DNA of 64,000 nt from an uncultured delta proteobacterium. GTDB taxonomy: Bacteria; Desulfobacterota; Desulfobaccia; Desulfobaccales; 0-14-0-80-60-11. Location of the stretch: assembly GCA_963773285.1 (NCBI GenBank), contig CAVZAM010000006.1:25786-89785 (forward strand). The letters are read 5' to 3'. The position numbers and the translations under genes are program-made. Positions 2,431 to 58,383 of this stretch are shown here, piece by piece. The first letter of the stretch is position 1, and the number at the start of each line of letters is the position of its first letter. The notes under the pieces are model-generated. The model was not told the DNA's origin. It did not search any database and worked only from the letters and a program-made list of their open reading frames with translations.

Positions 2431-2616
2431 TTGGGGGAGGGGGCTAAGGGCCGTGGGCCCTTACCCCCTCCCCCAAGCCCCCTCCCCCCATCCCTTAGTG
2501 GGGAATAAAAAAACAGGAGAAGCAGGGCCGTATCCCCGCCTTCTCCCGCCCATTAAAAGGGTTGGGAGGGGGGCCGGGGGGAGGGCAGGGAGCCGCTGCT
2601 CCCTGGCCCTCCCCCC
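2431..2616 (+). repeat. G/C-tract modular intergenic repeat, copy 1 (full length, forward)
   Basis: TTGGGGGAGGGGGCTAAGGGCCgtgGGCCCTTACCCCCTCCCCC...CCCTTAG[centre]AAAAGGGTTGGGAGGGGGG..GGGGGAGGGCAGGGAGCcgctGCTCCCTGGCCCTCCCCCC. It lies between the sirC stop and the ccsA-like start. Confidence 0.9.
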
Positions 2617-5744: not shown

Positions 5745-7637
5745 ATGCCCTCCATGGCTGTTTATCCCACAGAATTTGACCTGATTGTGGTGGGGGCCGG
5801 GCACGCCGGCTGCGAAGGGGCCCTGGCGGCCGCCCGCATGGGCCTCAAGGTCCTGCTGCTCAGCCTCAACCTGGACACGGTGGCGGCCATGGCCTGCAAC
5901 CCGGCGGTGGGGGGCCTGGCCAAGGGGCACCTGGTGAAGGAAATCGACGCCTTGGGCGGGGCCATGGGGCACGCCGCCGACCTCACCGGGGTGCAGTTCC
6001 GCACCCTGAACCTCTCCAAGGGGCCGGCCGTCCGGGGGACCTGGGTCCAGTGCGACAAGCAGGCCTACCGCCTGGCCATGAAGGCCAAGGTGGAAGGGAC
6101 CCGGAACCTCACCGTCCGGGAGGCCATGGTTGAGCGGCTCCTGATGGAGGACGGCCGGGTGACGGGCGTGTTGGACTCCCTGGGGCTGGTCACCAGGGCC
6201 CGGGCCGTGCTCATCACCACGGGGACATTCTTGAACGGCCTTATTCACATCGGCGAGGTGAAAATCCAGGCGGGGCGGGCCGGGGAGTTCGCCGCCCTGG
6301 GGCTGGCCGCCCACCTGCAGGAACTGGGCTTCAGGATGGGCCGCTTAAAGACCGGCACGCCCCCGCGTCTCAGGGCCTCGTCCATCGATTTTTCCCTTCT
6401 TACCCGCCAGGAAGGGGACCCCAGGCCCCGGCCTTTTTCCTGGCGCACGGCTGCCCTGGCCGTGGAGCAGTTGCCGTGTTTTATCAGCCACACTACCTCT
6501 GAGACCCACCGCATCGTCCGCGACAACATCGGCCTTTCCCCCCTGTACAGCGGGGTCATCACCGGGGTGAGCGCCCGCTACTGCCCGTCCCTCGAGGACA
6601 AGGTGATGCGCTTCACCGACAAGCCCAGCCACCAGGTGACCCTGGAGCGGGAAGGCCGGGACACCGAGGAGATTTACGCCAAGGGCCTGGGGAACTGCCT
6701 GCCGGTGGCGATCCAGCTGCGGCTCTTTAGATCCGTGCCGGGCCTGGAGGAAGTGGAGGTCATGCGGCCGGCCTACGCCATCGAGTACGATTTCGTCGAC
6801 CCTACCGAGCTCAAGCCCACCCTCGAGACCAAAAGAATCGCCGGCCTGTATATGGCCGGGCAGATCAACGGCACTTCGGGCTACGAGGAGGCCGCGGCCC
6901 AGGGCCTCTGGGCCGGGGTCAACGCTGCCTGCGCCGTGACCGGCCGCCCGCCCTTCCTGCCGGACCGCTCCCAGGCCTACATGGCCGTGCTGGTGGACGA
7001 TCTGGTCACCAAGGGCACCCGGGAGCCCTACCGCCTGTTCACCTCCCGGGCCGAATACCGCCTGCTCCTCCGGGAGGACAACGCCGACCTGCGCCTCACG
7101 GAATGGGGCCATGACCTTGGCCTGGTGGACCGGGAAGCGGTGGCGCGCCTCAGGGAGAAAAAGCGCCTCATGGCCGAAGAAAACGCCCGCCTGGCCACCA
7201 AAAAGGTAATTTCCACCCCCGGGGTAAATCAGGAACTGGCGGCCCGGGGCACGGCCCCCATCAGCGAACCCACGCCGCTCCTGCGCCTGGTGAAACGTCC
7301 GGAACTGGACCTCATCACCTGCCTCAGGCTGGCGGGGGAGGAGACCCCGGCCGCGCCCCCGGCGGTCCTGGAGCAGATCGAAATCGAGCACAAGTACGCC
7401 GGTTACCTCAAGCGTCAGGCGGAGATGGCCCAGAAAATGGCCCAGTGGGAAGAGAAACGTATTCCGGAGGGCTTTGATTACGACGCGGTGCCGGGGCTGA
7501 GCAACGAAATCCGGCAGAAACTCAAGGAGGTGCGGCCCCGTTCCCTGGGGCAGGCAGGCCGCATGAGCGGCGTCACCCCGGCGGCGGTGGCCCTGCTCAT
7601 GGTCTACGTGAAACGGTATTGTGGGGGAGGGGGCTAA
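5745..7637 (+). CDS. mnmG: tRNA uridine-5-carboxymethylaminomethyl(34) synthesis enzyme MnmG (GidA)
   Basis: 630-aa ORF with FAD motif [19 protein letters not shown] and conserved [16 protein letters not shown]. The last 5 codons plus the stop (CGGGG-TAA) lie inside repeat copy 2. Confidence 0.95.
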
Positions 7638-7805
7638 GGGTGGAACCCTTACCCCCTCCCCCACGCCCCCTCCCCCAATCCCTTGAGTGGGGTGAGAGAA
7701 TTGTCGACGGCCGGTGCATAGCTCTGGCCGTCGACACCCACTAACAGGGTTGGGAGGGGGGTGTGGGGGGAGGGCAGGGAGCCGCGGCTCCCTGGCCCTC
7801 CCCCC
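7619..7805 (+). repeat. G/C-tract modular intergenic repeat, copy 2 (full length, forward)
   Basis: Matches the consensus. The centre carries a perfect 10-bp hairpin GTCGACGGCC..GGCCGTCGAC. Confidence 0.9.
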
Positions 7806-7813
7806 AAAGATCT

Positions 7814-7846
7814 AAAAACAAAGGGCCGGCTGACCGGTGACCGGCC
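7814..7846 (-). terminator. putative intrinsic terminator of the glycine-zipper lipoprotein gene
   Basis: The minus-strand RNA has GGCCGG-11 nt-CCGGCC followed by CUUUGUUUUU. Confidence 0.55.
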
Positions 7847-7879
7847 AACTGGCCCGAGCATGATGCGGCGCTGGCAGCT

Positions 7880-9424: not shown

Positions 9425-11900
9425 ATGGTTGCATGGCTCAAATCGACGGGAGTGCGGAACATCTTCACCGCCAGGCTCCGCACCGGACTTGGCTTTTTGG
9501 CGGTCATACTGGCTTGCCTGTCAGTCCTGGCGTTTAAACCCATGACGCCAGGGGCTTTGTCCGAAAGTGCGGACCAAGAGGACAAGACCCTGTCCCCGTA
9601 TTTTGTGGTGATGAGCGATGACCCAGCAACCGACGCCCTGCCTTTAAAGAGCACGACGGCGGCGGTGAAGATCGCCGGGAAGGTGGCGGACGTCACGGTT
9701 ACCCAGGTATACCGGAACGAGGGCAAAAAGGCCCTGGAAGCCGTCTATGTTTTCCCCGCCTCCACCCGGGCCGCAGTCCATGCCCTGCGCATGACCGTGG
9801 GGGAGCGCATCATCGAGGCCGACATCATGGAGCGCCAGAAGGCCCGTGAGACCTACGAGGATGCTAAAAAAGCGGGCCAGACCACGACACTTCTCGAGCA
9901 GCAGCGCCCCAATGTCTTTCAGATGAACGTGGCCAATATTCTCCCCGGGGACGAGGTCAAGGTGGAACTCAAGTACCTGGAGCTGGTGCGGGCGGAGGAC
10001 AAGGTCTACGAGTTTGTCTATCCCACGGTGGTGGGGCCGCGCTATGCCAACCAGCCGGCGGCCGGGGCTCCGGACACGGAAAAGTGGGTGGCCAGCCCCT
10101 ATCTCCATGAGGGCCAGGCCCCGCCCTACAGCTTCGGTCTGAGCGCGGAGGTCCGGGGGGGCGTGCCCCTGGCCAAACTGGCCAGCCCCAGTCATGACAT
10201 CCAGGTAAACTACACCAGTCCCGAGGTTGCCCAGGTGACCCTGAAAGACGACAAAACTGGGGGCAACCGGGATTTCGTGCTGCGCTACGCCCTGGCCGGA
10301 GACAAAGTCGATGCAGGTCTCCTGCTTTATCCGGGGCAGGATGAGAATTTCTTTCTCATGGTCATGGAGCCGCCGGAACGGGTCAAAAAAGAGGCGGCCC
10401 CGCCCCGGGAGTACATCTTTATCGTGGACGTCTCCGGGTCCATGCACGGCTACCCCCTGGAGACCTCCAAGGCCCTCATGAAGGACATCATCACCAGGCT
10501 GCGGCCCCAGGATTTCATGAACATCCTCCTGTTTGAGAGCGGTTCCCAGGTGCTCTCCCAGGACGGGTCGCTGCCCGGCCACGGCGGACAACAAGAAACA
10601 GGCCCTGGAGTTCATCCAGTCCCAGCCGGGAAGCGGCGGCACCGAGATCCTGCCGGCCTTCAAACGGGCCCTGGCCCTGCCCCGGGCCAAGGGAGCTTCC
10701 CGCATCGTCGTGGTGGCCACCGACGGCTATGTTAACGTGGAAGCCGAGCTGTTCGAGCTCATCCGCCAGAACCTGGGGGAGGCCAACCTCTTCCCCTTCG
10801 GGATCGGCACCGCGGTGAACCGCTTCCTCATCGAGGGCATGGCCCGGGCGGGTAGAGGCGAGCCTTTTGTCATCGAGAAGCAGGGGCAAGCCGCCGCCCA
10901 GGCGGCCCGCTTCCAGCGCTACATCGAGACGCCGGTGCTCACCAACATTAAGGTGGCCTTCCCGGGCTTCGAGGCCTATGACGTCGAGCCGTCGGCCCTG
11001 CCGGACCTGTTTGCCCTGCGGCCCCTGACCCTTCTGGGGAAATACCGGGGCACACCCCAGGGAGCGGTGGTGGTCACGGGCCAAACCGCGGCGGGGCCAT
11101 TTCACCGGGAGCTCAAGGTGGAGGCGGCCCAGGCCAGCCCGGATAATGCCGCCTTGAGGTTCCTGTGGGCCCGGGAGCGTATAGCCCGTTTGTCCGATTA
11201 CCAGCACTTTGCCAGGGGCAGTGACGCCGCCCAAATTAAGGAGATCACCGACCTTGGCCTCAAATACACCCTCATGACCGCGTACACTTCTTTTGTGGCG
11301 GTGGACAAGGTCAAGCGGGGCGACGGCACGGTGGAGACCGTGAAGCAGCCCCTGCCCCTCCCCGAAGGCGTCTCCGACCTGGCGGTGGGGGGAGGTGGGC
11401 CTTACGCCGCCAATCTCAAGGCCAGGATGAGCCCGGGCTTTCACGGGGGGTTCGGGATGATGGCCAGCCGGAAGGATATGGCATTGAGTCCGGTACCGCC
11501 CAGCCCCTCCACCGAGCCCGCCTCAGGCCCGGGGGGCTCCGGCCAACCGGAGGCAACCCTCGAAACGCCTGCTGCCCCAACCCTGACGGTGCAGGTCCTG
11601 GAGATAAAAGGTGAGCTCGAGGCCGCCGCGGCCCAACAGACTCTGGAAGCAGGGCTGCCGCAGTTCGAGAAGTGCTATGGCGGCGCCAGGGCCAGGGGGG
11701 TGAAGCTGCCCACCGCGCTGAAACTCCGGGTGACCGTCAGCTCCGAGGGCAAGGTGACCAGGGTGCAGTGGGCTGAAAACGGCCGCCCCGATGCTACCCT
11801 GGGGAAATGCCTGATGGAGGCGGTGCAAGGGATTACCTTCCCGAAGCCGGCCTCGGGAGAGGTGGAATTGACCCTGCAGTTCAGCCTGGCTGGTCAGTAG
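9425..11900 (+). pseudogene. VIT-domain / von Willebrand factor A-domain protein, frame broken by one extra base
   Basis: ORFs 9425..10735 and 10533..11900 are one gene. It has an N-terminal anchor, a VIT region (AAVKIAGKVADVTVTQVYRNEG) and vWA MIDAS FIVDVSGSMHG. Removing one C from CCC at 10574-10576 joins ..FESGSQVLSQDGSLP to ATADNKKQALEFIQ. Confidence 0.8.
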
Positions 11901-11902
11901 AT

Positions 11903-11965
11903 GGCGGGGTAGGGGGCTAAGGGCTAGAGGGCCCTTACCCCTTCCCCCGCACCCCCTCCCCCCAA
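11903..11965 (+). repeat. G/C-tract repeat, copy 3 (left half only)
   Basis: GGCGGGGTAGGGGGCTAAGGGCtagaggGCCCTTACCCCTTCCCCCGCACCCCCTCCCCCC, then the homology stops. Confidence 0.8.
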
Positions 11966-20172: not shown

Positions 20173-20356
20173 TTGCGGGGGAGGGGGCTAAGGGCCAGAG
20201 GGCCCTTACCCCCTCCCGCACCCCCTCCCCCAATCCCTTGAGTTTTTCGGATCTTCCAGAGCCGTGGCCAACGGCCCCGGCTCTGGAAAAAACTTAAAGG
20301 GTTGGGAGGGGGGTGTGGGGGAGGGCAGGGAGCCACCGCTCCCTGGCCCTCCCCCC
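20173..20356 (+). repeat. G/C-tract modular intergenic repeat, copy 4 (full length)
   Basis: Matches the consensus. The centre hairpin is TTCCAGAGCCG..CGGCTCTGGAA. It lies between the phoU start and the glmS stop. Confidence 0.9.
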
Positions 20357-20368
20357 AAAAAATCTCAC

Positions 20369-31166: not shown

Positions 31167-31247
31167 TTCACCCGCCCAACAGAAAGCGGCGCATGCGCAG
31201 GTTGAGCAGCAGGCCCACGGCCAGCATGGTGGTGATGAGAGAGGACC
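31167..31247 (-). repeat. orphan duplicate of the rodA 3' end (25 codons plus stop)
   Basis: The 70-nt core 31167-31236 differs at 2 positions from 31758-31827. It still encodes SSLITTMLAVGLLLNLRMRRFLLGG-stop, with synonymous differences at its upstream end. Confidence 0.85.
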
Positions 31248-31283: not shown

Positions 31284-31523
31284 TTAGATTTTTTCCTTGG
31301 TCAGCCAGTCTATAAGGACATCCCGAGAGACATCCACGTCATGGAGAATTTTATTAACTAGTCCCCGGCCTAAATCTTCTCCTTTATGAAAAGGGACTGT
31401 AGCGGTGCGGCCGTCAGCATGTCGAAAAAAAATGTGGCTGCCGTGCTGTCTACTTTTCTTGAACCCTCGCGCTACCAGGAATTTTACCATCAGAATAGAG
31501 CTGATGGTAGGCAGACGGCTCAT
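31284..31523 (-). CDS. hicA: type II toxin HicA (mRNA interferase)
   Basis: 79-aa ORF with FLVARGFKKSRQHGSHIFFRHADGRTATVPFH, the HicA/YcfA signature. Confidence 0.9.
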   Translation of the reverse strand: MSRLPTISSILMVKFLVARGFKKSRQHGSHIFFRHADGRTATVPFHKGEDLGRGLVNKILHDVDVSRDVLIDWLTKEKI

Positions 31524-31732
31524 GCGTTGATCTCAATCTGTTGTACTGCCTCAAAACTCATGGGCACCGGTTCTTCTTCCAGGAGGCAAAGCTCAATGAC
31601 CTCCTTGACCCTGGGAAGTAGCTCTTCCATGGTTTTTCCCTGAGTATAACAGCTTTTCAAAGAAGGTACGGTGGCCACCAGGAGGCCATCTTCATCCCGT
31701 TCAATTAATACCGTGAAAAGATGTTTTTTCAT
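31520..31732 (-). CDS. hicB: type II antitoxin HicB (short UPF0150 type)
   Basis: 70-aa ORF with FTVLIERDEDGLLVATVPSLKSCYTQGKTMEEL. It has a 4-nt overlap with hicA. Confidence 0.88.
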   Translation of the reverse strand: MKKHLFTVLIERDEDGLLVATVPSLKSCYTQGKTMEELLPRVKEVIELCLLEEEPVPMSFEAVQQIEINA

Positions 31733-31758
31733 CGCTCGATCATCCCTTTTTTATTCCT

Positions 31759-32865
31759 TCACCCGCCCAGCAGAAAGCGGCGCATGCGCAAGTTGAGCAG
31801 CAGGCCCACGGCCAGCATGGTGGTGATCAGGGAAGAGCCGCCGTAGCTGAACAGCGGCAGGGGAATCCCCACCACGGGCATGAGCCCCGTCACCATGCAC
31901 AGATTGATGAATACCTGCCAGAACAACAGGGCGGTCACCCCCAGGGCCAGCAGCTGCCCGAAGCGCTCCTTGCAGTTCCTGGCGATGAGCAGGCCCCAGA
32001 GAGCCAGGGCCAGGTAAAGGAATACCAGGAAGGCCGAGCCCACGAAGCCCCATTCCTCGGCAAAGACCGAAAAGGCGAAGTCGGTGTGCTGCTCGGGGAG
32101 GAAATGGAGCTGGCTCTGGGTCCCCTGCAAAAAGCCCTTGCCCCAGAACTGCCCCGAACCCACGGCAATCTTGGACTGGATAATGTGGTAGCCCGCCCCC
32201 AGGGGGTCCCGCTCCGGGTCGAGAAAGATGCGCACCCGCTGGCGCTGGTATTCCTTGAGAAAAGGCCACACCACCGGGATGGAGCCCAGAAGGGCCATGA
32301 CGCCTACCAGCAGGGTGCGCCAGTGTACCCCCACCAGCAGGATCATCGACACCCCCACCATGGTCACGAGTATGGCGGAGCCCAGATCGGGCTGCCTGGC
32401 GATGAGGGCCGCGGGGATGACGATGAGCACCAGAGGGTAGATGATGTCCTTGAAATACAGGGAGCCCTCCGGGGCCAGGCGGTGGAAATGCCGGGCCAGC
32501 ACCAGGATGATGGCGATCTTGACCAGCTCCGAGGGCTGGAAGGTGAAAAAGCCCGCCCCCAGCCAGCGCTTGGAGCCGGAGACGGTCTTGCCCCCCACCA
32601 TCACCGCCAGGAGCAGGATGATGCTCAGGATGTAGAGGGGGTAGGCCAGCCTCTCCAGGTAGCGGTAGTCGATGGTGATGGTGATGAATAAAATAAAGAG
32701 GCCCACCAGGAGCCAGTAGCTCTGCTTGAGGTAAACCGCGGTGCTGCCGCCGGGGGTGTGGTTGAAGCCGGCGCTGTATAAATTGACGATGCCGATGCCG
32801 GCAATGAGGAGAATCAAAGCCAGCAAGAGCCAGTCAAAGTTTTGCACTAAACGGCGGTCAATCAT
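31759..32865 (-). CDS. rodA: peptidoglycan glycosyltransferase RodA (SEDS family)
   Basis: 368-aa polytopic ORF with the motifs QPSELVKI and GIPLPLFSYGGSS. Confidence 0.93.
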   Translation of the reverse strand: MIDRRLVQNFDWLLLALILLIAGIGIVNLYSAGFNHTPGGSTAVYLKQSYWLLVGLFILFITITIDYRYLERLAYPLYILSIILLLAVMVGGKTVSGSKRWLGAGFFTFQPSELVKIAIILVLARHFHRLAPEGSLYFKDIIYPLVLIVIPAALIARQPDLGSAILVTMVGVSMILLVGVHWRTLLVGVMALLGSIPVVWPFLKEYQRQRVRIFLDPERDPLGAGYHIIQSKIAVGSGQFWGKGFLQGTQSQLHFLPEQHTDFAFSVFAEEWGFVGSAFLVFLYLALALWGLLIARNCKERFGQLLALGVTALLFWQVFINLCMVTGLMPVVGIPLPLFSYGGSSLITTMLAVGLLLNLRMRRFLLGG

Positions 32866-34166: not shown

Positions 34167-34363
34167 TTGTGGGGGAGGGGGTTCCCACGGGCTGGAAGCC
34201 CGTGCTACCGGGGCCAGCGGCCCTCACGCCCCCTCCCCCAATCCCTTGAGTTGGGGAAATTTATGGTCCAGATCGAGGCCAAGCCTCGCCTGGACCGTAA
34301 ACTCAAAGGGTTGGGAGGGGTGTGGGGGAGGGCAGGGAGCCTCTGCTCCCTGGCCCTCCCCCC
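34167..34363 (+). repeat. G/C-tract modular repeat, copy 5 (variant left hairpin)
   Basis: The left unit is replaced by GGGGGAGGGGGTTCCCACGGGCtggaaGCCCGTG...; the right units match the consensus. The centre is shared with copies 6 and 12. Confidence 0.88.
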
Positions 34364-34371
34364 ATAAACTC

Positions 34372-39905: not shown

Positions 39906-40778
39906 CTACTCGGTGCCGATGAAAAAGGGCCGAAAATCCGATTCCGGCCGGGTCAGGGCCTTTTTGAGGATTGCCAGCATCTGGTCACGGTCTTCAGGGA
40001 GGCTGCCCGACACGTTGACGTAATTAGTGTAATGATCGCTCTCCACCCGCACGGGCATAGTGATACCCGCGAGGAGAGCCGCAGTTTCGGCCAGCACCTG
40101 GTGGGGGCCGAGCATGACGAAGCGCCCGGCCTGCACATCTTCCAGAAGAGGCGTGTTCACCTTGGGGACGAAGGTACGCAGGCGCAGCACCGTGGGCGGG
40201 GCTTCGTTCACCAGGGCCGCGGTTTTGCTGGCATGGGCCGCGGTTCTTTCCTGGCCGCCGATGCCCAACATGACGTAGGCATTGAGCTCGATCCCCGCTT
40301 CCCGCAGCAGCCGGGACGCCTCGGCATGCACCTCCCGGGTGGCGCCTTTTTTGACCGCCGCCAGAATATCGTCATCGCCGCTCTCCCAGCCCACGTGAAT
40401 CCGACTGAGCCCGGCTTCGGCCAGGAGGCGCAGCTCATCAAGCCCCTTTTTCACGATAAACTGCGAGGACCCGTACACCGTGAGGCGCGTCAGATTCGGG
40501 AACAGGTCCCGGGCGTGACGGCAAATCTCGGCCAGGGCAGGGGTGGGCATGGCGATGGTATTCCCGGCCGGGAAAAAAATCGTCCGCACCCGGTCCCCGT
40601 CTTGACGGGCCGCCTCCGCCAGGTCTTCCTTGATCTCCTGGACCGGCCGCACCTTGAACCGGGTGTTCTTGTATACCAGACAAAAAGTGCAGCGGTTGTG
40701 GGGACAACCCACCGTGGCCTGGACCAGAAGACTCCTGGCCTCGCTGGGCGGCCGATATATGGGACCTTCGTAGCGCAT
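39906..40778 (-). CDS. radical SAM protein
   Basis: 290-aa ORF with the CxxxCxxC cluster GCPHNRCTFC near the N-terminus. The subfamily is not identified. Confidence 0.85.
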   Translation of the reverse strand: MRYEGPIYRPPSEARSLLVQATVGCPHNRCTFCLVYKNTRFKVRPVQEIKEDLAEAARQDGDRVRTIFFPAGNTIAMPTPALAEICRHARDLFPNLTRLTVYGSSQFIVKKGLDELRLLAEAGLSRIHVGWESGDDDILAAVKKGATREVHAEASRLLREAGIELNAYVMLGIGGQERTAAHASKTAALVNEAPPTVLRLRTFVPKVNTPLLEDVQAGRFVMLGPHQVLAETAALLAGITMPVRVESDHYTNYVNVSGSLPEDRDQMLAILKKALTRPESDFRPFFIGTE

Positions 40779-40788
40779 GGTGTGTAGG

Positions 40789-40979
40789 TTGGCGGGGGAG
40801 GGGGCTAAGGGCCGGTGGGACCCTTACCCCCTCCCCCGCACCCCCTCCCCCAATCCCTTGAGTTTGGGAAATTTATAGTCCAGGCTCGAGGCCTAGCTTC
40901 GCCTGGACCATATACTCAAAGGGTTGGGAGGGGGGCTTGGGGGGAGGGCAGGGAGCCGCGGCTCCCTGGCCCTCCCCCC
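40789..40979 (+). repeat. G/C-tract modular repeat, copy 6 (full length)
   Basis: Matches the consensus. The centre GGGAAATTTATAGTCCAGGC..GCCTGGACC is shared with copy 5. Confidence 0.9.
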
Positions 40980-40996
40980 AAGACATAAACTTCCAA

Positions 40997-41311
40997 TCAA
41001 ATCGGCGGGGCGATGGTGACGAGGAGGCGCAGGTCGGTGGTGGCCATGAGGCCGTGGGGTTCGGCGATGTCGCAGACCAGCACGTCGCCTTTCCTGGCGG
41101 GCAGGGGTTCGGCCCCGCCGAGAAACTCACCTTCTCCCTCAAGAATCACCATGCTCACCTGGCCTTCGAGGTCGTGGCTGTGCACCGCCATCTGCTGCCC
41201 GGCTTTGAAGTTGAAATTGAGGATCTTCATGTAGGGCGAGTCATTGACCAGGAGCCGTTTAAAGCTCTGGTCGCTGAAGGCACCGGCCTCATACAGGTTG
41301 ATTTTATGCAT
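40997..41311 (-). CDS. cupin-domain protein
   Basis: 104-aa ORF with the cupin core GQQMAVHSHDLEGQVSMVILEGEG...GDVLVCDIAEPHG. Confidence 0.8.
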   Translation of the reverse strand: MHKINLYEAGAFSDQSFKRLLVNDSPYMKILNFNFKAGQQMAVHSHDLEGQVSMVILEGEGEFLGGAEPLPARKGDVLVCDIAEPHGLMATTDLRLLVTIAPPI

Positions 41312-41350
41312 GGGGTCCTCCTACCCAAATTCCGCCCTGGGTTTCAGGCC

Positions 41351-42661
41351 TTATAAATAGCGGCCGCCTCTTTGCCCGGCAAAGGCGTTGCGGGTATCCA
41401 CGATGAGGCGGGCCTTTGTGGCGATCCCGGCGTAGTCGTAGGCGCTGTGGTCAGTCACCAGGAGCACGCAGTCGGCCTGTGCAAGGTTTTCCGGGGACAG
41501 CTCCAGGCTCTTGAGGTTGAGGCCCGGGTAGTGCCGCCCGCCCTTCAGGTGGGGGATATGGGGATCGTTATAGCTCACCTCCGCCCCCTTTTGTTGCAAC
41601 AGGGAGATGATCTTCAACCCGGGGGATTCCCGGGGGTCGTCCACGTCTTTTTTGTAGGCCGCGCCCAACACCAGGATTTTGGAGCCCTTGAGGGCCTTCC
41701 CCTGGTCGTTCAGGGCATCGGCGACCCGCTGCACCACAAAATACGGCATGGAGGCATTGACTTCGCCGGCCAGCTCGATGAAGCGGGTGGAAAGGTCGTA
41801 CTGACGGGCCTTCCAGGTCAGGTAAAAGGGGTCGATGGGGATGCAGTGCCCGCCCAGGCCCGGCCCGGGGTAAAAGGCCTGGAACCCGAAGGGCTTGGTC
41901 CGGGAGGCCTCGATGACCTCGAAGACGTCCAGCCCCATACGGAGGCACAGCACCTTGAGTTCGTTGATGAGGGCGATGTTCACCGACCGGTAAATGTTCT
42001 CCAGGAGCTTGGTCATCTCCGCCGCCTGGGTGGATGACACCGGCACCACCCGGTCCACCACCTGGCTGTACAGGGCCACCCCGTTTTCCCGGCAGGCGGG
42101 CGTGATGCCCCCCACCACCTTGGGGATGTTTTGCACGTGGAAGGAGGGGTTGCCCGGGTCCTCCCGCTCCGGGGAAAAGACCAGGAAAAAGTCCTGGCCC
42201 ACCGCCAGTTTTTTGCTCAACAGAGGCAGGAGCACCTCCACGGTGGTGCCGGGGTAGGTGGTTGACTCCAGCGACACCAGCTGGCCGGGGCGCAGGGCAT
42301 GGGCGATATCCCGGGTGGTATTTTCCACGTACTTGAGGTCCGGCTCCCGGGACGGGGTCAGGGGCGTGGGCACGCAAATCAGCAGGGCATCCGGCTCCGA
42401 CAGGCGCGCCATGTCATGGGTGGCGGCAAAACGCGGCCTATCACCCCTGGCAGCCACCATCTCCGCCACCTGGCTGGAGGGGATATGCTTGATGTAGGAC
42501 TCGCCCCGGTTGAGGTGGTCCACCTTGGCCCGGTCCGTGTCAAACCCCAGCACCGGGAAACCCATCTCCCAAAACCGCAACACCAGGGGCAACCCTACAT
42601 ACCCCAGGCCAATCACCCCGATCAGGGCTTCCTTCTGGTCGATTTTCTCACGAAATGTCAT
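41351..42661 (-). CDS. nucleotide-sugar dehydrogenase (UDP-glucose/GDP-mannose dehydrogenase family)
   Basis: 436-aa ORF with Rossmann motif GVIGLGYVGLPL and catalytic region GLGGHCIPIDP. Substrate is not assignable. Confidence 0.88.
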   Translation of the reverse strand: MTFREKIDQKEALIGVIGLGYVGLPLVLRFWEMGFPVLGFDTDRAKVDHLNRGESYIKHIPSSQVAEMVAARGDRPRFAATHDMARLSEPDALLICVPTPLTPSREPDLKYVENTTRDIAHALRPGQLVSLESTTYPGTTVEVLLPLLSKKLAVGQDFFLVFSPEREDPGNPSFHVQNIPKVVGGITPACRENGVALYSQVVDRVVPVSSTQAAEMTKLLENIYRSVNIALINELKVLCLRMGLDVFEVIEASRTKPFGFQAFYPGPGLGGHCIPIDPFYLTWKARQYDLSTRFIELAGEVNASMPYFVVQRVADALNDQGKALKGSKILVLGAAYKKDVDDPRESPGLKIISLLQQKGAEVSYNDPHIPHLKGGRHYPGLNLKSLELSPENLAQADCVLLVTDHSAYDYAGIATKARLIVDTRNAFAGQRGGRYL

Positions 42662-42686
42662 GTCTCTCTCTTGGCTTGAAGTAGTT

Positions 42687-42880
42687 TTGTGGGGGAGGGG
42701 GCTAAGGGTCAGAGACCCTTACCCCCTCCCCCACGCCCCCACCCCCAATCCCTTGAGTTGGGTTTAATGCAGCTAAAGTCGAGGCCGGAAAGCCTCAGCT
42801 TTAGTCCAACTCAAAGGGGGTTGGGAGGGGAGTGTGAGGGGAGGGCGGGGGAGCCACCGCTCCCCCGGCCCTCCCCTCAC
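42687..42880 (+). repeat. G/C-tract modular repeat, copy 7 (full length, variant right unit)
   Basis: The left unit matches the consensus. The right unit is GAGGGGAGGGCGGGGGAGCcaccGCTCCCCCGGCCCTCCCCTC. It ends 3 nt before the purH stop. Confidence 0.9.
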
Positions 42881-42883
42881 ATC

Positions 42884-44176
42884 TCAATGCTTGAAGCAGC
42901 GTTGGCCGGTGAAGACCATGGCCACCGGCGGGTCGGCTTCGTTGCAGGCCTCGATGGATTCGTGGTCCCGCATGGACCCCCCGGCGTGGGCGATGGCGGC
43001 AATGCCCTGGCGGATGGCCACGTCCACCCCGTCCCTGAAGGGAAAGAAGGCGTCTGAGACCATGGCGGCGCCGATGAGCCCGCCCCTGGCCTCTTCGGTT
43101 TCCTTGTCGATGTCCACCTTGTCGGAGTTTTCCCGCTGACGCTGGAGGATGCCCAATTCCAGTTCCTTGTAGGGGATGCCGAAGCGCTCGAAGCAGAGCT
43201 TGTCGGCGTACTTGGTGTAGGCCTTGTAGATGGCGATTTCGGCCACCCCCACCCGGTCCTGTTCGCCGGTGCCGATGCCCTGGGTGACGCCGTCCTTGAC
43301 GAACAGGACGGAATTGGAGGTCACCCCCTGCTCCACCCACCAGCCGAACAGCAGGTCGTCGTATTCCCGGTCGGTGGGCTGGCGCCGGCAGCGGTATTCC
43401 TTGCCCTGGTAGGTGGCCACCGCGGGCTTGAAGTCTTCTTTCTTCAGGATGGCGTTCTGGGGGGACTGCTGCACGATAATGCCGCCGTCCACCAGGCTTT
43501 TGAAGTCCACGAAACGCTTGTGCAGGAGCTCTTTGAGCCGGTCGAAGCGGGGCACCCGGATGATGCGCAGGTCCTTGGATTTTTTCAGGATGTTAAGTGC
43601 GCCGGCCTCGAAATCCGGCGCGGCCACCACCTCCAGGTAGTTTTTGCTGATGAGCTCCGCGGCGACTTTGTCCAGGGGGCGGTTGAACACCGCGGCCCCC
43701 CCGAACGCGGCGATGCGGTCGGCCATGTTGGCCTTGTCGTAGGCCCGGGCCGGGGAATCCCCCCAGGCGGCGCCGCAGGGGTTGTTGTGCTTGAGGATGA
43801 CGCAGGCGGGTTTTTTATCCAGGAATTTTATAATATTGAGGCCGTTGTCCAGGTCGGTGAGGTTAATTTTGCCCGGGTGCTTGCCCGCCTGGAGCATGCC
43901 CGCTTCGTCCAGGGCGCTCACCAGGCCCGAGCCCGGCTCGACGAACTGGCAGTTGCCCAGGGTGAGATTGCCACCCACCAGCTCATAGAGGGCCGCCTCC
44001 TGGTCCGGATTTTCGCCGTAGCGCAGCCCGCTGTCGATGACCTCGCCACTTTTGGGGTCGGGGATCTTCCAGGTGCGCTTCCGGTAGACGAGCTTCTGGT
44101 CGCCGAAGGTGATGGTCATTTCCGGGGGAAAGTGGTCTGCCAGGATGGTGCGGTACATGGCCTTGGTGGTGCTCAT
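42884..44176 (-). CDS. purH: AICAR formyltransferase (PurH-type AICARFT domain without the N-terminal IMP cyclohydrolase/MGS domain)
   Basis: ATG at 44176 follows GGAGGAGAGG. LRYGENPDQ lies about 55 aa from the N-terminus, and the C-terminus is ..GGSMRDHESIEA...TGQRCFKH. Confidence 0.88.
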   Translation of the reverse strand: MSTTKAMYRTILADHFPPEMTITFGDQKLVYRKRTWKIPDPKSGEVIDSGLRYGENPDQEAALYELVGGNLTLGNCQFVEPGSGLVSALDEAGMLQAGKHPGKINLTDLDNGLNIIKFLDKKPACVILKHNNPCGAAWGDSPARAYDKANMADRIAAFGGAAVFNRPLDKVAAELISKNYLEVVAAPDFEAGALNILKKSKDLRIIRVPRFDRLKELLHKRFVDFKSLVDGGIIVQQSPQNAILKKEDFKPAVATYQGKEYRCRRQPTDREYDDLLFGWWVEQGVTSNSVLFVKDGVTQGIGTGEQDRVGVAEIAIYKAYTKYADKLCFERFGIPYKELELGILQRQRENSDKVDIDKETEEARGGLIGAAMVSDAFFPFRDGVDVAIRQGIAAIAHAGGSMRDHESIEACNEADPPVAMVFTGQRCFKH

Positions 44177-44236
44177 AGATGCCTCTCCTCCATGGTTGAT
44201 ATGGGCCCGCGTCACAGGGACCGGCGGCCGGGGCCG

Positions 44237-49351: not shown

Positions 49352-49430
49352 AGTTTTCTCAGGGTAATTAGTTTACCATATATTGCACTAAACACCACGC
49401 TTTAAGGCCCCTTGGCCAATATGAAATTTA

Positions 49431-49615
49431 GGGGGGAGGGCCAGGGACCTGCGGTCCCTGCCCTCCCCCCACACCCCCTCCCAACCCTTTGAGTTTGGCT
49501 GAAATTGAGGCCTAAAGCCCACAACTTCAGCCGGATTAAACTCAACTCAGGGGATTGGGGGAGGGGGCGTGGGGGAGGGGGTAAGGGCCTGCGGTCCTTA
49601 GCCCTCTCCCCACAA
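49431..49615 (-). repeat. G/C-tract modular repeat, copy 8 (full length, inverted)
   Basis: It is the reverse complement of the consensus. The right-unit stem is changed to GGGACC/GGTCCC, a compensatory pair flip. Confidence 0.9.
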
Positions 49616-50624: not shown

Positions 50625-50648
50625 GGGAAACCTTAGAAAGTTTTTAGT

Positions 50649-50764
50649 GGGGGGAGGGCCAGGGAGCAGTGGCTCCCTGCCCTCCCCCCACGCCCCCCTC
50701 CCAACCCTTTGAGACTCAAGGGATTGGGGGAGGGGGTAAGTTCTGCCCTTAGCCTCCTCCCCGC
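50649..50764 (-). repeat. G/C-tract repeat, copy 9 (inverted, compact, no centre)
   Basis: The arms CCCAACCCTTTGAG and CTCAAGGGATTGGG are separated by a single base. The left unit is degenerate and lacks the second C-tract. Confidence 0.85.
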
Positions 50765-51340: not shown

Positions 51341-53830
51341 TCAGGTGACGATGTTGATCAGTCTTGCCCCGGGCCAGCACCACCCGCCGGGGTTCCCCCT
51401 TGAGCCATTTTGCACCGACGGGTCCTGAAGGGCAAGTGTTTTAACTGCTCCTCGGTGGCGCTCACCGGGGCCTCGATCCTGCTCCGCACCTTGCCGTCCA
51501 CCTGCACCACCAGGGTGAAGACCGACTCCACCAGGGCCTCCGGTTGGGCCTCGGGCCAGGGCTGCAGCTGCAGGGAGTCTTCATAACCCAGGGCCTGCCA
51601 GAGTTCCTCGGCCAGGTGGGGCACCATGGGGTTCAGAAAGCTTCACTAGGGTCTCGAAGGCCTTCCCGCCAGACCTCGGAAGGTGGGCTCTTCCTTGGGC
51701 AGGGTCTCCAGGGTCAGGTAGAAGGTGTTCACCAGTTCCATCACCGTGGCGATGGCCGTGTTGAAGTGAAACCGCTCCTCGATGTCTTCGGTGACTTTCT
51801 GGATGGCCTGATGCACCTTGCGCCGAAGTTCCTGGAGCCTCGGGTTTCAGATCGGCCCCGGTGCCCCGGTAGGCCGAGACTCCCTTAATGTCGGGGAGGA
51901 TGGTCTGGGTCAGGGTCGAAGACCCGGTGCAGGAAGCGGTGCGCTCCGGCCACCCCCTGGTCGTTCCACTCGAGGTCCCGCTCCGGCGGCGCCGCAAAAA
52001 GCAGAAACAGGCGGGTGGTATCGGTGCCGTAGGTTTGAATCATGTCGTTGGGGTCCACCACGTTGCCCTTGGACTTGGACATCTTGGCCCCGTCCTTCAC
52101 CACCATGCCCTGGGTGAGCAGGCGCGCGAAGGGCTCGGCGACATTCACGTGCCCCAGGTCCCGGAGGACCTTGGTGAAAAAACGGGCGTAGAGCAGGTGC
52201 AGCACCGCGTGCTCGATGCCGCCGATGTACTGGTCCACCGGGGCCCAGTAATTCACCCGGGCCGGGTCCAGGATGCCGCCGGTGTAGTCCGGGCAGGCAA
52301 AGCGCAGGAAATACCAGGAGGACTCCACGAAGGTGTCCATGGTGTCCACCTCCCGGCGGGCCGGCCCCCCGCAGGCGGGGCAGGGCACCTTCCAGAAGGA
52401 CTCCAGTTCGGCGAGCGGTGAGGCCCCCACCTGCTTGATGTGCACATCGAGGGGCAGGACCACGGGCAGGTCTTGTTCGGGGACCGGCACCGCGCCGCAG
52501 GCCTCACAATAAATAATGGGGATGGGCGCGCCCCAGTAACGCTGGCGGGAAATACCCCAGTCCCGCAGGCGGAACTGCTCCGCCGCCTCGCCAAGGTTAT
52601 GTTCGGCCAGATATTTGGCGATGGCGGCCTTGGCCGGGCCGCTCTCCATGCCGGTAAAGGGGCCGGAGTCCACCAGGACGCCGTCCTCCTCGTAGGCCTG
52701 GGTGAGGCTGTCGGCCGCCAGCTTCTCCCCCGGGGGCTGGATCACCACCTTGATCTGCTGGCCGTATTTCCGGGCGAACTCAAAGTCCCGCTGGTCGTGG
52801 GCCGGCACCGCCATGACCGCGCCGGTGCCGTAGCCCATGAGCACAAAATTGGCCACAAAAATGGGCATGTCCCAGCCGGTGACGGGGTTCACGCAGGAGC
52901 GCCCGGTGAATACCCCTTCCTTGGTGATCTCCTCCAGGGCCCCCCGGCTTTTATCCACGGCCCGCCAGTGCGTCGACGAAGCGGCGCACCTCGTCTTCCT
53001 GGGGGGTGCCCTGGGCCAGGGCCAGGGCCCGGGGGTGCTCCGGGGCGAGGCTCATGAAGGTGGCGCCCCACAGGGTGTCCGGGCGGGTGGTGAACACGGT
53101 GATGGGCTCGGCCTCGCCCTTTACCGGAAAATGAATGTGGGCGCCCGATGGACTTGCCGATCCAGTTCCGCTGCATGGTGAGGACCCGCTCCGGCCAGTG
53201 CGTGAGGCGGTCCAGGTCCTGCAGCAGTTCTTCGGCATAGGCGGTGATCTTGAAGAACCACTGCTCCAGCTCCTTTAGGACCACCTCGCTGTCGCAGCGC
53301 CAACAGAGGCCGTCCTCCACCTGCTCGTTGGCCAGGACGGTATGGCAGCTGGGGCACCAGTTCACCGGCGCGGTTTTTTTAAAGGCCAGGCCCCGCTTGA
53401 ACATCTCGATGAACACCAGCTGCTCCCAGCGGTAGTAGTCGGGGTCGCAGGTGGCGATTTCCCGGCGCCAGTCGTAGCTGTAGCCCAGGGCCTTGAGTTG
53501 GCCCCGCATGTAGGCGATGTTGTCGTAGGTCCAGGCAGCCGGGTGGATGCCGGCCTTGAGTGCGGCGTTTTCGGCGGGGAGGCCGAACGCGTCCCAACCC
53601 ATGGGGTGCAGCACGTTAAAGCCCCGCATCCACTTGTAGCGGGCCACCACGTCGCCGATGGTGTAGTTGCGCACGTGGCCCATGTGAATGCGCCCCGAGG
53701 GGTAGGGGAACATCTCCAGCACGTAATATTTGGGCCGGGCCGGGTCCTCGGCGGCATCGAACAGCTGGGTGTCCTCCCAGATCTGCTGCCACTTGGCCTC
53801 CACCCGGTGCGGTTCGTAGCGGCTTGCCAT
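51341..53830 (-). pseudogene. leuS: leucyl-tRNA synthetase with about nine frame disruptions
   Basis: Its pieces are ORFs 52889..53830, 52951..53238, 51885..52958, 51581..51997 and 51358..51627. The HIGH motif ([11 protein letters not shown]) and KMSKS are present. My inferred indel sites are 53144-46, 52961-63, 51913-15, 51834-36, ~51665, 51637-39, 51439-42, 51408-11 and ~51361. Confidence 0.9.
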
Positions 53831-54779: not shown

Positions 54780-54956
54780 TTGTGGGGGAGGGGGCTAAGG
54801 GTCGAGGACCCTTACCCCCTCCCCCACGCCCCCACCCCCAATCCCTTGAGTTGGATAATCGGTTAGAGTTGGGCATATGCCTCGACTCTAACCGGCTCAA
54901 AGGGTTGGAGGGGGTGTGGGGGAGGGCAGGGAGCCACTGCTCCCGGCCCTCACCCC
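54780..54956 (+). repeat. G/C-tract modular repeat, copy 10 (full length)
   Basis: Matches the consensus. The centre hairpin is GGTTAGAGT..ACTCTAACC. Confidence 0.9.
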
Positions 54957-55024
54957 AGAATAATTTTTTGCGAAGCAAAGGATAATATTTGCAAGGTCTG
55001 AAAACAACCGAAGCGCCGCTGCTC

Positions 55025-55836: not shown

Positions 55837-56029
55837 TTGCGGGGGAGGGGGCTAAGGGTCGCAGACCCTTACCCCCTCCCCCGCACCCCCTCCCCCAATC
55901 CCTTGAGGGGGTTAATTTGGCCGGCTGGATCCGTGGCCTCAAGGCCCCGGCTTCAAGCCGACCCCTTAAAGGGTTGGGAGGGGGGCGTGGGGGGAGGGCA
56001 GGGAGCCGCTGCTCCCTGGCCCTCCCCCC
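55837..56029 (+). repeat. G/C-tract modular repeat, copy 11 (full length)
   Basis: Matches the consensus. It lies between the ABC ATPase stop and the tyrS start. Confidence 0.9.
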
Positions 56030-56059
56030 ATAGCACAATCATAATAATGGAGAACATAC

Positions 56060-58284: not shown

Positions 58285-58373
58285 GGCGGGCCTCGCCTGG
58301 ACCATAAACTCAAAGGGTGGGGAGGGGGGTGTGGGGGGAGGGCAGGGAGCCACCGCTCCCTGGCCCTCCCCCC
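58284..58373 (+). repeat. G/C-tract repeat, copy 12 (right half only)
   Basis: GCCTCGCCTGGACCATAAACTCAAAGGGTGGGGAGGGGGGTGTGGGGGGAGGGCAGGGAGCcaccGCTCCCTGGCCCTCCCCCC. Its centre fragment matches copies 5 and 6. Confidence 0.85.
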
Positions 58374-58383
58374 AAAAGACCAT

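Follow-up and report, generated by a model that had tools for sequence, protein, structure and literature searches.

A G-rich intergenic repeat with four hairpins in Desulfobaccales that behaves like REPIN/BIME or MITE elements

Positions 7619 to 7806 (+) of a 64-kb stretch of DNA from an uncultured delta proteobacterium (GenBank assembly GCA_963773285.1, contig CAVZAM010000006.1; the whole stretch is called the window below) hold a single copy of a hairpin-forming repeat of about 190 nucleotides (nt), which makes up the 188 bases flagged in an initial annotation. The repeat is non-coding, intergenic and present in high copy number, its copies being dispersed among the housekeeping genes of an uncultured lineage of sulfate reducers. 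It is built of terminal inverted modules, lies independently of the direction of transcription and is polymorphic for presence or absence between relatives. Its pairing is kept through compensatory change, and the sequence of its arms is kept beyond what pairing needs. The family is undescribed but of an ordinary kind, and it acts like a REPIN/BIME or a MITE, membership in neither of which is demonstrated. With middling confidence, we favor the reading that it is a palindromic repeat resembling these elements which is or was mobile and is selected as a folded single strand.

Architecture and fold of the repeat

The copy at 7619-7806, the second of twelve in the window and therefore named copy 2, covers the whole repeat model, scoring 158.5 bits with nhmmer and 185.3 bits with a covariance model (CM). 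It begins TTGT before the GGGGGAGGGGGCTAAGGG of hairpin 1, which runs from 7621 to 7664 (+) and reads TGT-GGGGGAGGGGGCTAAGGG-tgga-ACCCTTACCCCCTCCCCC-ACG. The arms of this unit, GGGGGAGGGGGCTAAGGG / CCCTTACCCCCTCCCCC, span 7623-7662 and are interrupted by a single bulged C. Hairpin 2 is formed by a left arm at 7666-7687 (+), CCCCCTCCCCCAATCCCTTGAG, and a right arm at 7741-7761 (+), CTAACAGGGTTGGGAGGGGGG, and these arms enclose a variable centre module of 53 nt (7688-7740, +) in which an A/T-rich unpaired stretch precedes a separate 13-bp hairpin at 7702-7736. Hairpin 3, TGT-GGGGGGAGGGCAGGGAGC-cgcg-GCTCCCTGGCCCTCCCCCC-A, occupies 7765-7805 (+). Sequence and predicted fold agree for hairpins 1 and 3 and for both arms of hairpin 2, and the centre module is defined by fold and covariation. 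The hairpins stand on feet of the form TGT-GGGGG...CCCCC-ACA.

The minimum free energy (MFE) structure of copy 2 gives exactly the three helices that the initial annotation had described at 7619-7805, on both strands and for RNA as well as DNA (z about -11). As RNA, the + strand folds with -150.5 kcal/mol compared with -96.8±4.8 kcal/mol for dinucleotide shuffles (z = -11.2) and the - strand with -148.2 kcal/mol (z = -11.7), while the single-stranded DNA reaches -82.3 kcal/mol (z = -11.7). Details of that annotation likewise held up: all quoted loop sequences are correct, the apex of unit 1 reads GGGCC/GGCCC in copies 1 and 4, GGGTC/GACCC in copies 7, 10 and 11 and GGGT/ACCC in copy 2, and the unit-3 stem of copy 8 (49430-49613, -) is the variant GGGACC/GGTCCC. 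The arms of unit 2 had been placed correctly, but the right arm quoted was the family consensus, whereas copy 2 itself reads CTAACAGGGTTGGGAGGGGGG. The centre, taken at the time for an unstructured variable region, is in reality a fourth hairpin and the chief site of covariation.

The left module, consisting of hairpin 1 and the left arm of hairpin 2, aligns over about 68 nt to the reverse complement of the right module, consisting of the right arm of hairpin 2 and hairpin 3. The element is thus composed of two long imperfect terminal modules of about 68 nt in inverted orientation, which flank the variable central hairpin and of which each comprises one G5AG5-based hairpin (1 or 3) plus a tail, the two tails pairing with each other as hairpin 2. 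The reverse strand of the whole element still scores 92-110 bits on the CM. Beside the shared G5AG5/C5TC5 tract each hairpin carries an 'address' that it does not share with the others, namely CTAAGGG/CCCTTA in hairpin 1, AATCCC/GGGTT in hairpin 2 and CAGGGAGC/GCTCCCTG in hairpin 3, and it is these segments that determine the pairing partner of each arm. The motif GGGGGAGGG occurs 43 times in the 64-kb window compared with an expectation of 6.8±2.3.

Covariation and conservation of the arms

Compensatory changes between copies had been proposed from the comparison of individual stems, and statistics over aligned copies bear this out: paired positions change together far beyond shuffled or slid controls, significantly so both in eight window copies and in a set of 27. 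The window set comprised eight full copies in a MAFFT alignment made blind to structure. Both sides were changed in 17 of 73 pairs versus 9.8±1.7 after shuffling (0/500), and the covariation score was 0.170 versus 0.105 for shuffled alignments and 0.04-0.085 when partners were slid by 1-3 columns. An alignment of all 116 CM hits mixed strands and fragments and was replaced by one of 27 full-length copies, all top-strand, drawn from the window and from 17 loci in related genomes. Being aligned to the CM, this larger set leans towards the model structure, a bias of which the window-only MAFFT result is free. It showed 95.1% of cells paired versus 85.6% after shuffling, 29 pairs changed on both sides versus 19.4±1.9, 185 cells changed on both sides versus 56, and a covariation score of 0.280 versus 0.102, with slid controls at 0.03-0.08. 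The cell counts tally sequences and not independent events. Assembly indels are possible, and differences in run length such as G5 versus G6 are untrustworthy, while substitution-based covariation is unaffected.

The signal is strongest in the centre hairpin, where all ten pairs covary with up to four pair types each and 96% of cells are paired among the 27 copies. In hairpin 1, covariation is found at the apex (C-G 15, U-A 7, G-C 4), in the CTAAGG stem and in the flanking pair, in which TGT/ACA changes to TGC/GCA. In hairpin 3 it is found at the apex (G-C 12, C-G 10, A-U 4, U-A 1) and in the CAGGGA/CGGGGGA variant. An alignment-free check pointed in the same direction. Centres with their own arms fold at -33.9±6.6 kcal/mol versus -19.9±6.1 kcal/mol for chimeras that join the left half of one copy's centre to the right half of another's, and only 3% of the chimeras reached the own-arm mean. 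The centre hairpins are self-complementary, yet they are not complementary to the arms of other centres.

Covariation of this kind could also arise as a by-product of events at the DNA level without structural selection, for instance by intra-strand template switching at quasi-palindromes, by gene conversion between inverted arms or between copies, or by amplification of a few sub-families each carrying one double change. G.T and A.C mismatches are nearly symmetrical, as if both strands were equivalent, sub-family variants are shared within genomes (hairpin 3 GGGACC-TCA-GGTCCC recurs, loop included, in about 10 copies from two metagenome-assembled genomes (MAGs)), and the counting of sequences in place of events is a further point in favor of such an origin. 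It accounts poorly for the presence of up to four pair types at the same positions, for covariation at every one of the ten centre pairs and for the three compensated differences that separate the centres of copies 7 and 8, which are closely related. Compensated changes also occurred at one orthologous site across species, in hairpin 1 at the copy 7 site of the comparison locus L036, and slid-partner controls, which preserve relatedness, score 3-8 times lower than the true partners. We therefore regard a mere by-product as unlikely.

Nor does covariation alone point to a functional RNA, because the orientation of the copies is random and G.T mismatches are barely more frequent than A.C mismatches. 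Among 24 copies between co-directional genes, counted over the window and the comparison loci, 13 are sense and 11 antisense with respect to transcription. On the + strand of the element we counted 58 G.T versus 33 A.C mismatches, mostly at a few sub-family positions. With this split and so modest an excess there is no sign of one RNA strand being the selected form, and the repeat does not match the profile of a strand-specific functional RNA, which would have a fixed orientation to transcription and an excess of G.U over A.C.

The initial annotation had concluded that pairing and not sequence is preserved. Its first half stands. Its second half does not, since mean identity between copies is about 80% in the arms compared with about 39% in the centres, 20 of 73 pairs are invariant among the 27 copies and the G5AG5 / C5TC5 tracts are about 96% identical, their pairs showing almost no change. 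Invariant pairs and near-identical G-tracts together mean that the sequence is constrained beyond pairing. One explanation would be that the element acts as a site in double-stranded or non-B DNA, either bound by nucleoid- or topology-related proteins or adopting a G-quadruplex, i-motif or cruciform that organizes the chromosome. BIMEs, for comparison, bind IHF and gyrase. The near-invariance of the G5AG5 tracts, which pairing alone would permit to change, is consistent with this idea, as is the orientation split of 13 to 11, which would suit an orientation-independent function. Every copy moreover contains a canonical (G3+N1-7)x4 motif where the right arm of hairpin 2 meets the left arm of hairpin 3. 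In copy 2 these two arms together constitute the motif, and GGGTTGGGAGGGGGGTGTGGGGGGAGGGCAGGG is the candidate G-quadruplex-forming sequence of the element. In contrast, covariation supports the hairpin fold and not a G-quadruplex, the arm-specific addresses (CTAAGGG/CCCTTA, AATCCC/GGGTT, CAGGGAGC/GCTCCCTG) make sense only for the choice of a hairpin partner, and no binding protein was identified. A role at the level of double-stranded or non-B DNA thus appears very unlikely to be what maintains the repeat, although the readings weighed here are not mutually exclusive.

Turnover, genomic context and distribution

Comparison with orthologous sites revealed gain and loss of the repeat. In the window, the mnmG (gidA) gene (5745-7637, +) has lost its native C-terminus (...FSGGN/K.. 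in relatives) to an element-encoded ...YCGGGG*. The last 17 nt of the open reading frame (ORF) are the left arm of hairpin 1, and the stop codon TAA at 7635-7637 lies in the element. The site is empty in three relatives whose MnmG proteins are 88-89% identical (L117, L118 and L119). Their genes keep native ends (...FSGRNSAR*, ...FSGGNKSSSEKA* and ...FSGGRKPP*), after which come a short spacer and a conserved hairpin between convergent genes, GGGCCAG…CTGGCCC. The window retains the corresponding native hairpin between convergent genes, GGGCCGG...CTGGCCC, at 7823-7855; relatives without the element keep this hairpin too, and it does not belong to the repeat. L116, the closest relative (93%), has the native mnmG stop together with a single degenerate hairpin resembling hairpin 3 in opposite polarity. 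The full element of the window is fused to mnmG across a shared TTTGYGGGGGA.

Other sites show both persistence and replacement. The copy 7 site is filled in the same orientation in the window, L014 and L036. Between the window and L014 its hairpin 3 hardly differs, even in the loop, hairpin 1 of L036 carries compensated substitutions, and the centre has another sequence each time: L036 has a hairpin there, L014 two small ones. At the copy 6 site the window has a full copy, L039 a short one facing the other way, L036 a solitary hairpin and L014 no element. Conversely, L014 and L119 hold copies at sites that lack the element in the window, and presence and absence also differ downstream of hemA and of tadA. 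In view of these filled, empty and variable sites, the family is insertionally dynamic, yet able to persist at a site over genus-level divergence. The copy in L119 (440-700) sits within an inverted repeat of the host, CCTTTGCTCTGCAAAG … CCTTTTGCAGAGCAAAGG, at a distance of about 18 nt from either end, and looks as if it had been inserted into the loop of a pre-existing hairpin.

The placement of the copies relative to genes invites the reading that the repeat is an RNA element of the host. It would act as a co-transcribed 3′ untranslated or intercistronic hairpin that hinders exonucleases, tunes operons, insulates or terminates, and pairing would be conserved because the RNA hairpin is the function. 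E. coli REP (repetitive extragenic palindromic) sequences provide a precedent, as they block 3′-to-5′ exonucleases, set differential operon expression and insulate or terminate transcription. All 12 window copies lie between ORFs or overlap only the final codons of one. They usually start within about 25 nt of the upstream stop codon and end 8-30 nt from the next gene, filling the spacers of co-directional genes, and some lie within conserved operons (ybaB|recR, lptE|holA). Extreme hairpin stability on either strand, retention of the copy 7 site in three species, the supply of the upstream gene's stop codon by the element at at least five loci and the mild G.T excess on the + strand (58 to 33) are further points that such a role would explain. 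Against it stand the random orientation to transcription (13 to 11), orthologous sites that are often empty in close relatives, so that no single copy is required, and arm sequences conserved far past the needs of pairing. In addition, copy 2 lacks a U-tract on either strand, no terminator-like site was called in 7619-7806, and the repeat has no match in Rfam. A primary function as a host RNA hairpin thus seems rather doubtful to us.

Beyond the co-directional pairs, 12 copies of the window and the comparison loci lie between convergent genes and five in spacers that were called divergent, the crude ORF caller having erred in at least one of them; ORF calls in the comparison loci are heuristic. 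No fewer than five unrelated genes take their last codons from the element, as a '...GGGG*' tail read in the frame GGG GGA GGG GGC TAA, namely mnmG at window 7619-7637 and genes at L001 3755, L017 5652, L023 1923 and L024 7898. Two candidate functions were rejected. An intrinsic terminator as the general function was discarded, given that the A-run preceding the centre is uncorrelated with gene direction and missing in copy 2, where inspection of both strands also found no T-run after any hairpin. A sigma-70 promoter in the A/T-rich centre spacer was dismissed upon inspection, the spacing from TTGAG to TTTAAT being far too short. A run of 6-7 A precedes the centre hairpin in L016, L017, L021, L032, L034 and window 2503-2516, especially in MAG MFD00032, and together with the centre hairpin it has the form of a canonical hairpin plus T-run terminator on the opposite strand.

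Copies in the window were located by blastn, nhmmer and the CM. Nine of the twelve are full-length or nearly so and three are partial. Besides copy 2, full copies found by both nhmmer and the CM are copy 1 (2431-2616, +), copy 4 between glmS and phoU (20173-20357, +), copy 6 (40792-40980, +), copy 8 between holA and proS (49430-49613, -), copy 10 (54780-54957, +) and copy 11 upstream of tyrS (55837-56030, +). Copy 7 (42687-42876, +), whose orthologous site is filled in two further species, is a full copy detected by nhmmer. Copy 5 lies between ybaB and recR (34167-34364, +), and its hairpin 1 is broken by a nested small hairpin, CACGGGCTGGAAGCCCGTG, at 34186-34204. The remaining three were detected by nhmmer: copy 3 (11904-11964, +) consists of hairpin 1 and the start of the hairpin 2 left arm, copy 9 (50648-50762, -) is a short form without the centre module (…CCCTTGAG-T-CTCAAAGGG…), and copy 12 (58291-58374, +) retains the right half of the centre, the hairpin 2 right arm and hairpin 3. 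Ten of the twelve share the absolute orientation (+), and the cumulative GC skew climbs across the window. The shared orientation might mean a bias by replication strand, for which the sample is too small to say.

The nested hairpin in copy 5 is the single window representative of a second, smaller hairpin repeat, CACRGGC-N5-GCCYGTG, which is present in related genomes (L014 3966-4006 and 6905-6923; L016 2292; L018 160, 5011 and 5051; L025 607; L027 2181; L032 5418-5455 and 5696). These small hairpins are often nested in the large element, either at the apex of hairpin 1 or in place of the centre. Three cases of nesting, namely these small hairpins within hairpin 1 or the centre, the L119 copy within an inverted repeat of the host and the centre within hairpin 2, raise the possibility that the family is something other than an ordinary repeat driven by a transposase. 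One may imagine nested palindromes as a system spanning the order, whose modules enter the loops or centres of other hairpins. In such a system the centre could be actively diversified, or copies could spread by homology or by hairpin-templated copying. In another version of this conjecture, the invariant G-tracts could toggle between hairpin and G-quadruplex with a regulatory role at several hundred sites per genome, a number extrapolated from the density in the window. We offer these ideas as speculation with little chance of proving correct.

The family is confined to Desulfobaccales-type genomes. Scanning one genome per species from 185,579 species with the pattern CCCNCCCCCAATCCCTTGAG (19 specified bases) gave 35 loci, and the comparison sequences are mostly MAG contigs. 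Element-bearing loci, as judged by nhmmer, came only from MAGs labelled Desulfobaccales, Desulfobaccia, 'delta proteobacterium', Syntrophobacterales or unclassified 'uncultured bacterium'. No element was detected by nhmmer at six pattern matches in other phyla (Chloroflexota, cyanobacteria, Alphaproteobacteria, Methylobacterium) and in an unclassified MAG (L008), and viral contigs and a plasmid collection contained zero copies. L036 and L039 were useful relatives obtained from a metagenome scan with UDP-glucose dehydrogenase, which found few close relatives. MnmG homologues at 85-93% identity are annotated as Desulfobaccales. L014 is syntenic with the window at 37.5-44.8 kb at about 80-89% amino-acid identity. 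At the gathering threshold, Rfam 15 recognized only three tRNAs in the window and nothing in the repeat, and below threshold only generic miRNA-hairpin models appeared (17-32 bits versus cut-offs of 47-197). A literature search for the motif and for repeats of Desulfobacca found no description.

According to a Pfam analysis of 60 of its ORFs, the window is a core chromosomal region of housekeeping genes plus unknowns. It includes hemA, mnmG, hrcA-grpE-dnaK, glmS/glmU-like genes, the ATP synthase operon, rodA, dnaX-ybaB-recR, a tadA-like gene, relA/spoT, proS, holA, lptE, leuS, tyrS, ddl and ispDF. The block from a radical-SAM gene to a purH-like gene (39907-44179) is inverted relative to the L014 contig, with breakpoints near 39.7-39.9 kb and 44.2 kb that do not coincide with repeat copies of the window. 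At least two overlapping ORFs make up leuS (52889-53830 and 51885-52958; region 51885-53830, -), and a VIT/VWA gene is split into 9425-10735 and 10533-11900 (+), which suggests frameshifts or pseudogenes and, in the assembly, indel errors. A 79-nt direct repeat, 94% identical (31167-31245 and 31758-31836), duplicates the 3′ end of rodA and brackets small ORFs at 31284-31523 (-) and 31520-31732 (-) in a region of lower G+C content. Judged by eye, these two ORFs look like a HicA/HicB toxin-antitoxin pair, and the region resembles a small cassette that was inserted where rodA ends.

Proposed mechanism and comparison with known repeat families

Our preferred reading, a mobile or formerly mobile element selected as a folded single strand, can be put as follows. 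A trans-acting enzyme encoded elsewhere in the genome would copy, or would have copied, the element into new intergenic sites. It would recognize the conserved G-rich hairpins in single-stranded DNA much like HUH/Y1 enzymes of the RAYT or IS200/IS605 type. Such enzymes (RAYTs, IS200/IS605 TnpA) act on single-stranded DNA hairpins and leave no target duplication. Copies able to fold would propagate and persist, and element-level selection would keep the fold, so that mutations in one arm would be retained mainly if compensated. The arms in contact with the protein would stay constant in sequence, while the centre, which need only remain a hairpin, would drift with compensation. As the copies lie directly after stop codons and inside operons, they would be co-transcribed, and it is plausible that the resulting very stable mRNA hairpins, in either orientation, are tolerated or exploited by the host as a secondary role.

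Several observations weigh against this reading. The Pfam scan of the 60 window ORFs found no transposase, and a crude HUH...Y (RAYT) motif scan of 316 kb was negative. The element has neither the GTAG/CGTC head of classical REPs nor the target-site duplication of classical MITEs, the latter being missing when copy 2 is compared with the empty L117-L119 sites (TATTGT... versus ...AAAGAT). Native mnmG sequence is similar to the element end (TTTGYGGGGGA) over about 11 nt, so that the left junction of copy 2 is indistinct; this would also fit homology-driven copying in place of transposition. That the copy 7 site stays filled in three species, with a near-identical hairpin 3 and loop, could reflect host-level selection, and movement was not directly observed. 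Our confidence in mobility and single-strand selection is only intermediate because no enzyme was found and because of the ambiguous copy 2 junction.

Whatever its mode of spread, the repeat is a previously undescribed and abundant family in the uncultured order Desulfobaccales, unusually G-rich and with four hairpins, for which the data offer clean filled and empty sites plus orthologous copies across species. It also carries a caution: strong and significant covariation in a genomic repeat is insufficient evidence for a functional RNA. The elements rewrite the 3′ ends of at least five genes and lie within essential operons. In Desulfobaccales-type MAGs they will confound assembly, the prediction of terminators and screens for non-coding RNA.

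Like intrinsic terminators, the repeat consists of G+C-rich stem-loops just downstream of genes, in some relatives with an A-run before the centre. Unlike them, most window copies including copy 2 have no U-tract, and copies lie inside operons and in both orientations. MITEs and the Correia, ERIC and BOX elements are likewise 100-200 nt in size, are non-coding and have long, imperfect inverted repeats at their termini. Insertion polymorphism between relatives, co-transcription with neighbors and modular variants (the short copy 9 without a centre, nested insertions) are further common traits. In contrast to these A+T-rich families, the repeat described here is very G+C-rich. The one filled/empty comparison, at copy 2, showed no target-site duplication of the kind expected of a MITE, and no parent insertion sequence (IS) with matching ends is known, no IS library search having been made.

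In REPINs, conserved ends flank a spacer that is less conserved but retains its hairpin through compensatory changes (Bertels & Rainey 2011, PMC3116915), and the palindromes of REPs have a conserved tetranucleotide, GTAG or CGTC, at their foot (PMC3733652). The repeat of the window differs in that its arms are G5AG5 tracts without such a head, that it measures about 190 nt with four nested or adjacent hairpins and not one, and that its hosts are Thermodesulfobacteriota MAGs and not Gammaproteobacteria. A cognate RAYT (Y1_Tnp) gene is typically flanked by REP repeats. Here no RAYT was found in the sequence scanned, i.e. the 60 window ORFs by Pfam and 316 kb by crude motif. On the other hand, the repeat shares with REP/REPIN sequences (PMC3116915, PMC3337134) a high copy number, a strictly extragenic location and short palindromic units in alternating orientation, conserved ends around a compensating hairpin spacer, the lack of a target-site duplication, vertical persistence within the lineage and partial 'singlet' remnants. 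If a cognate enzyme were found, REPIN-like systems would be extended to a new phylum.

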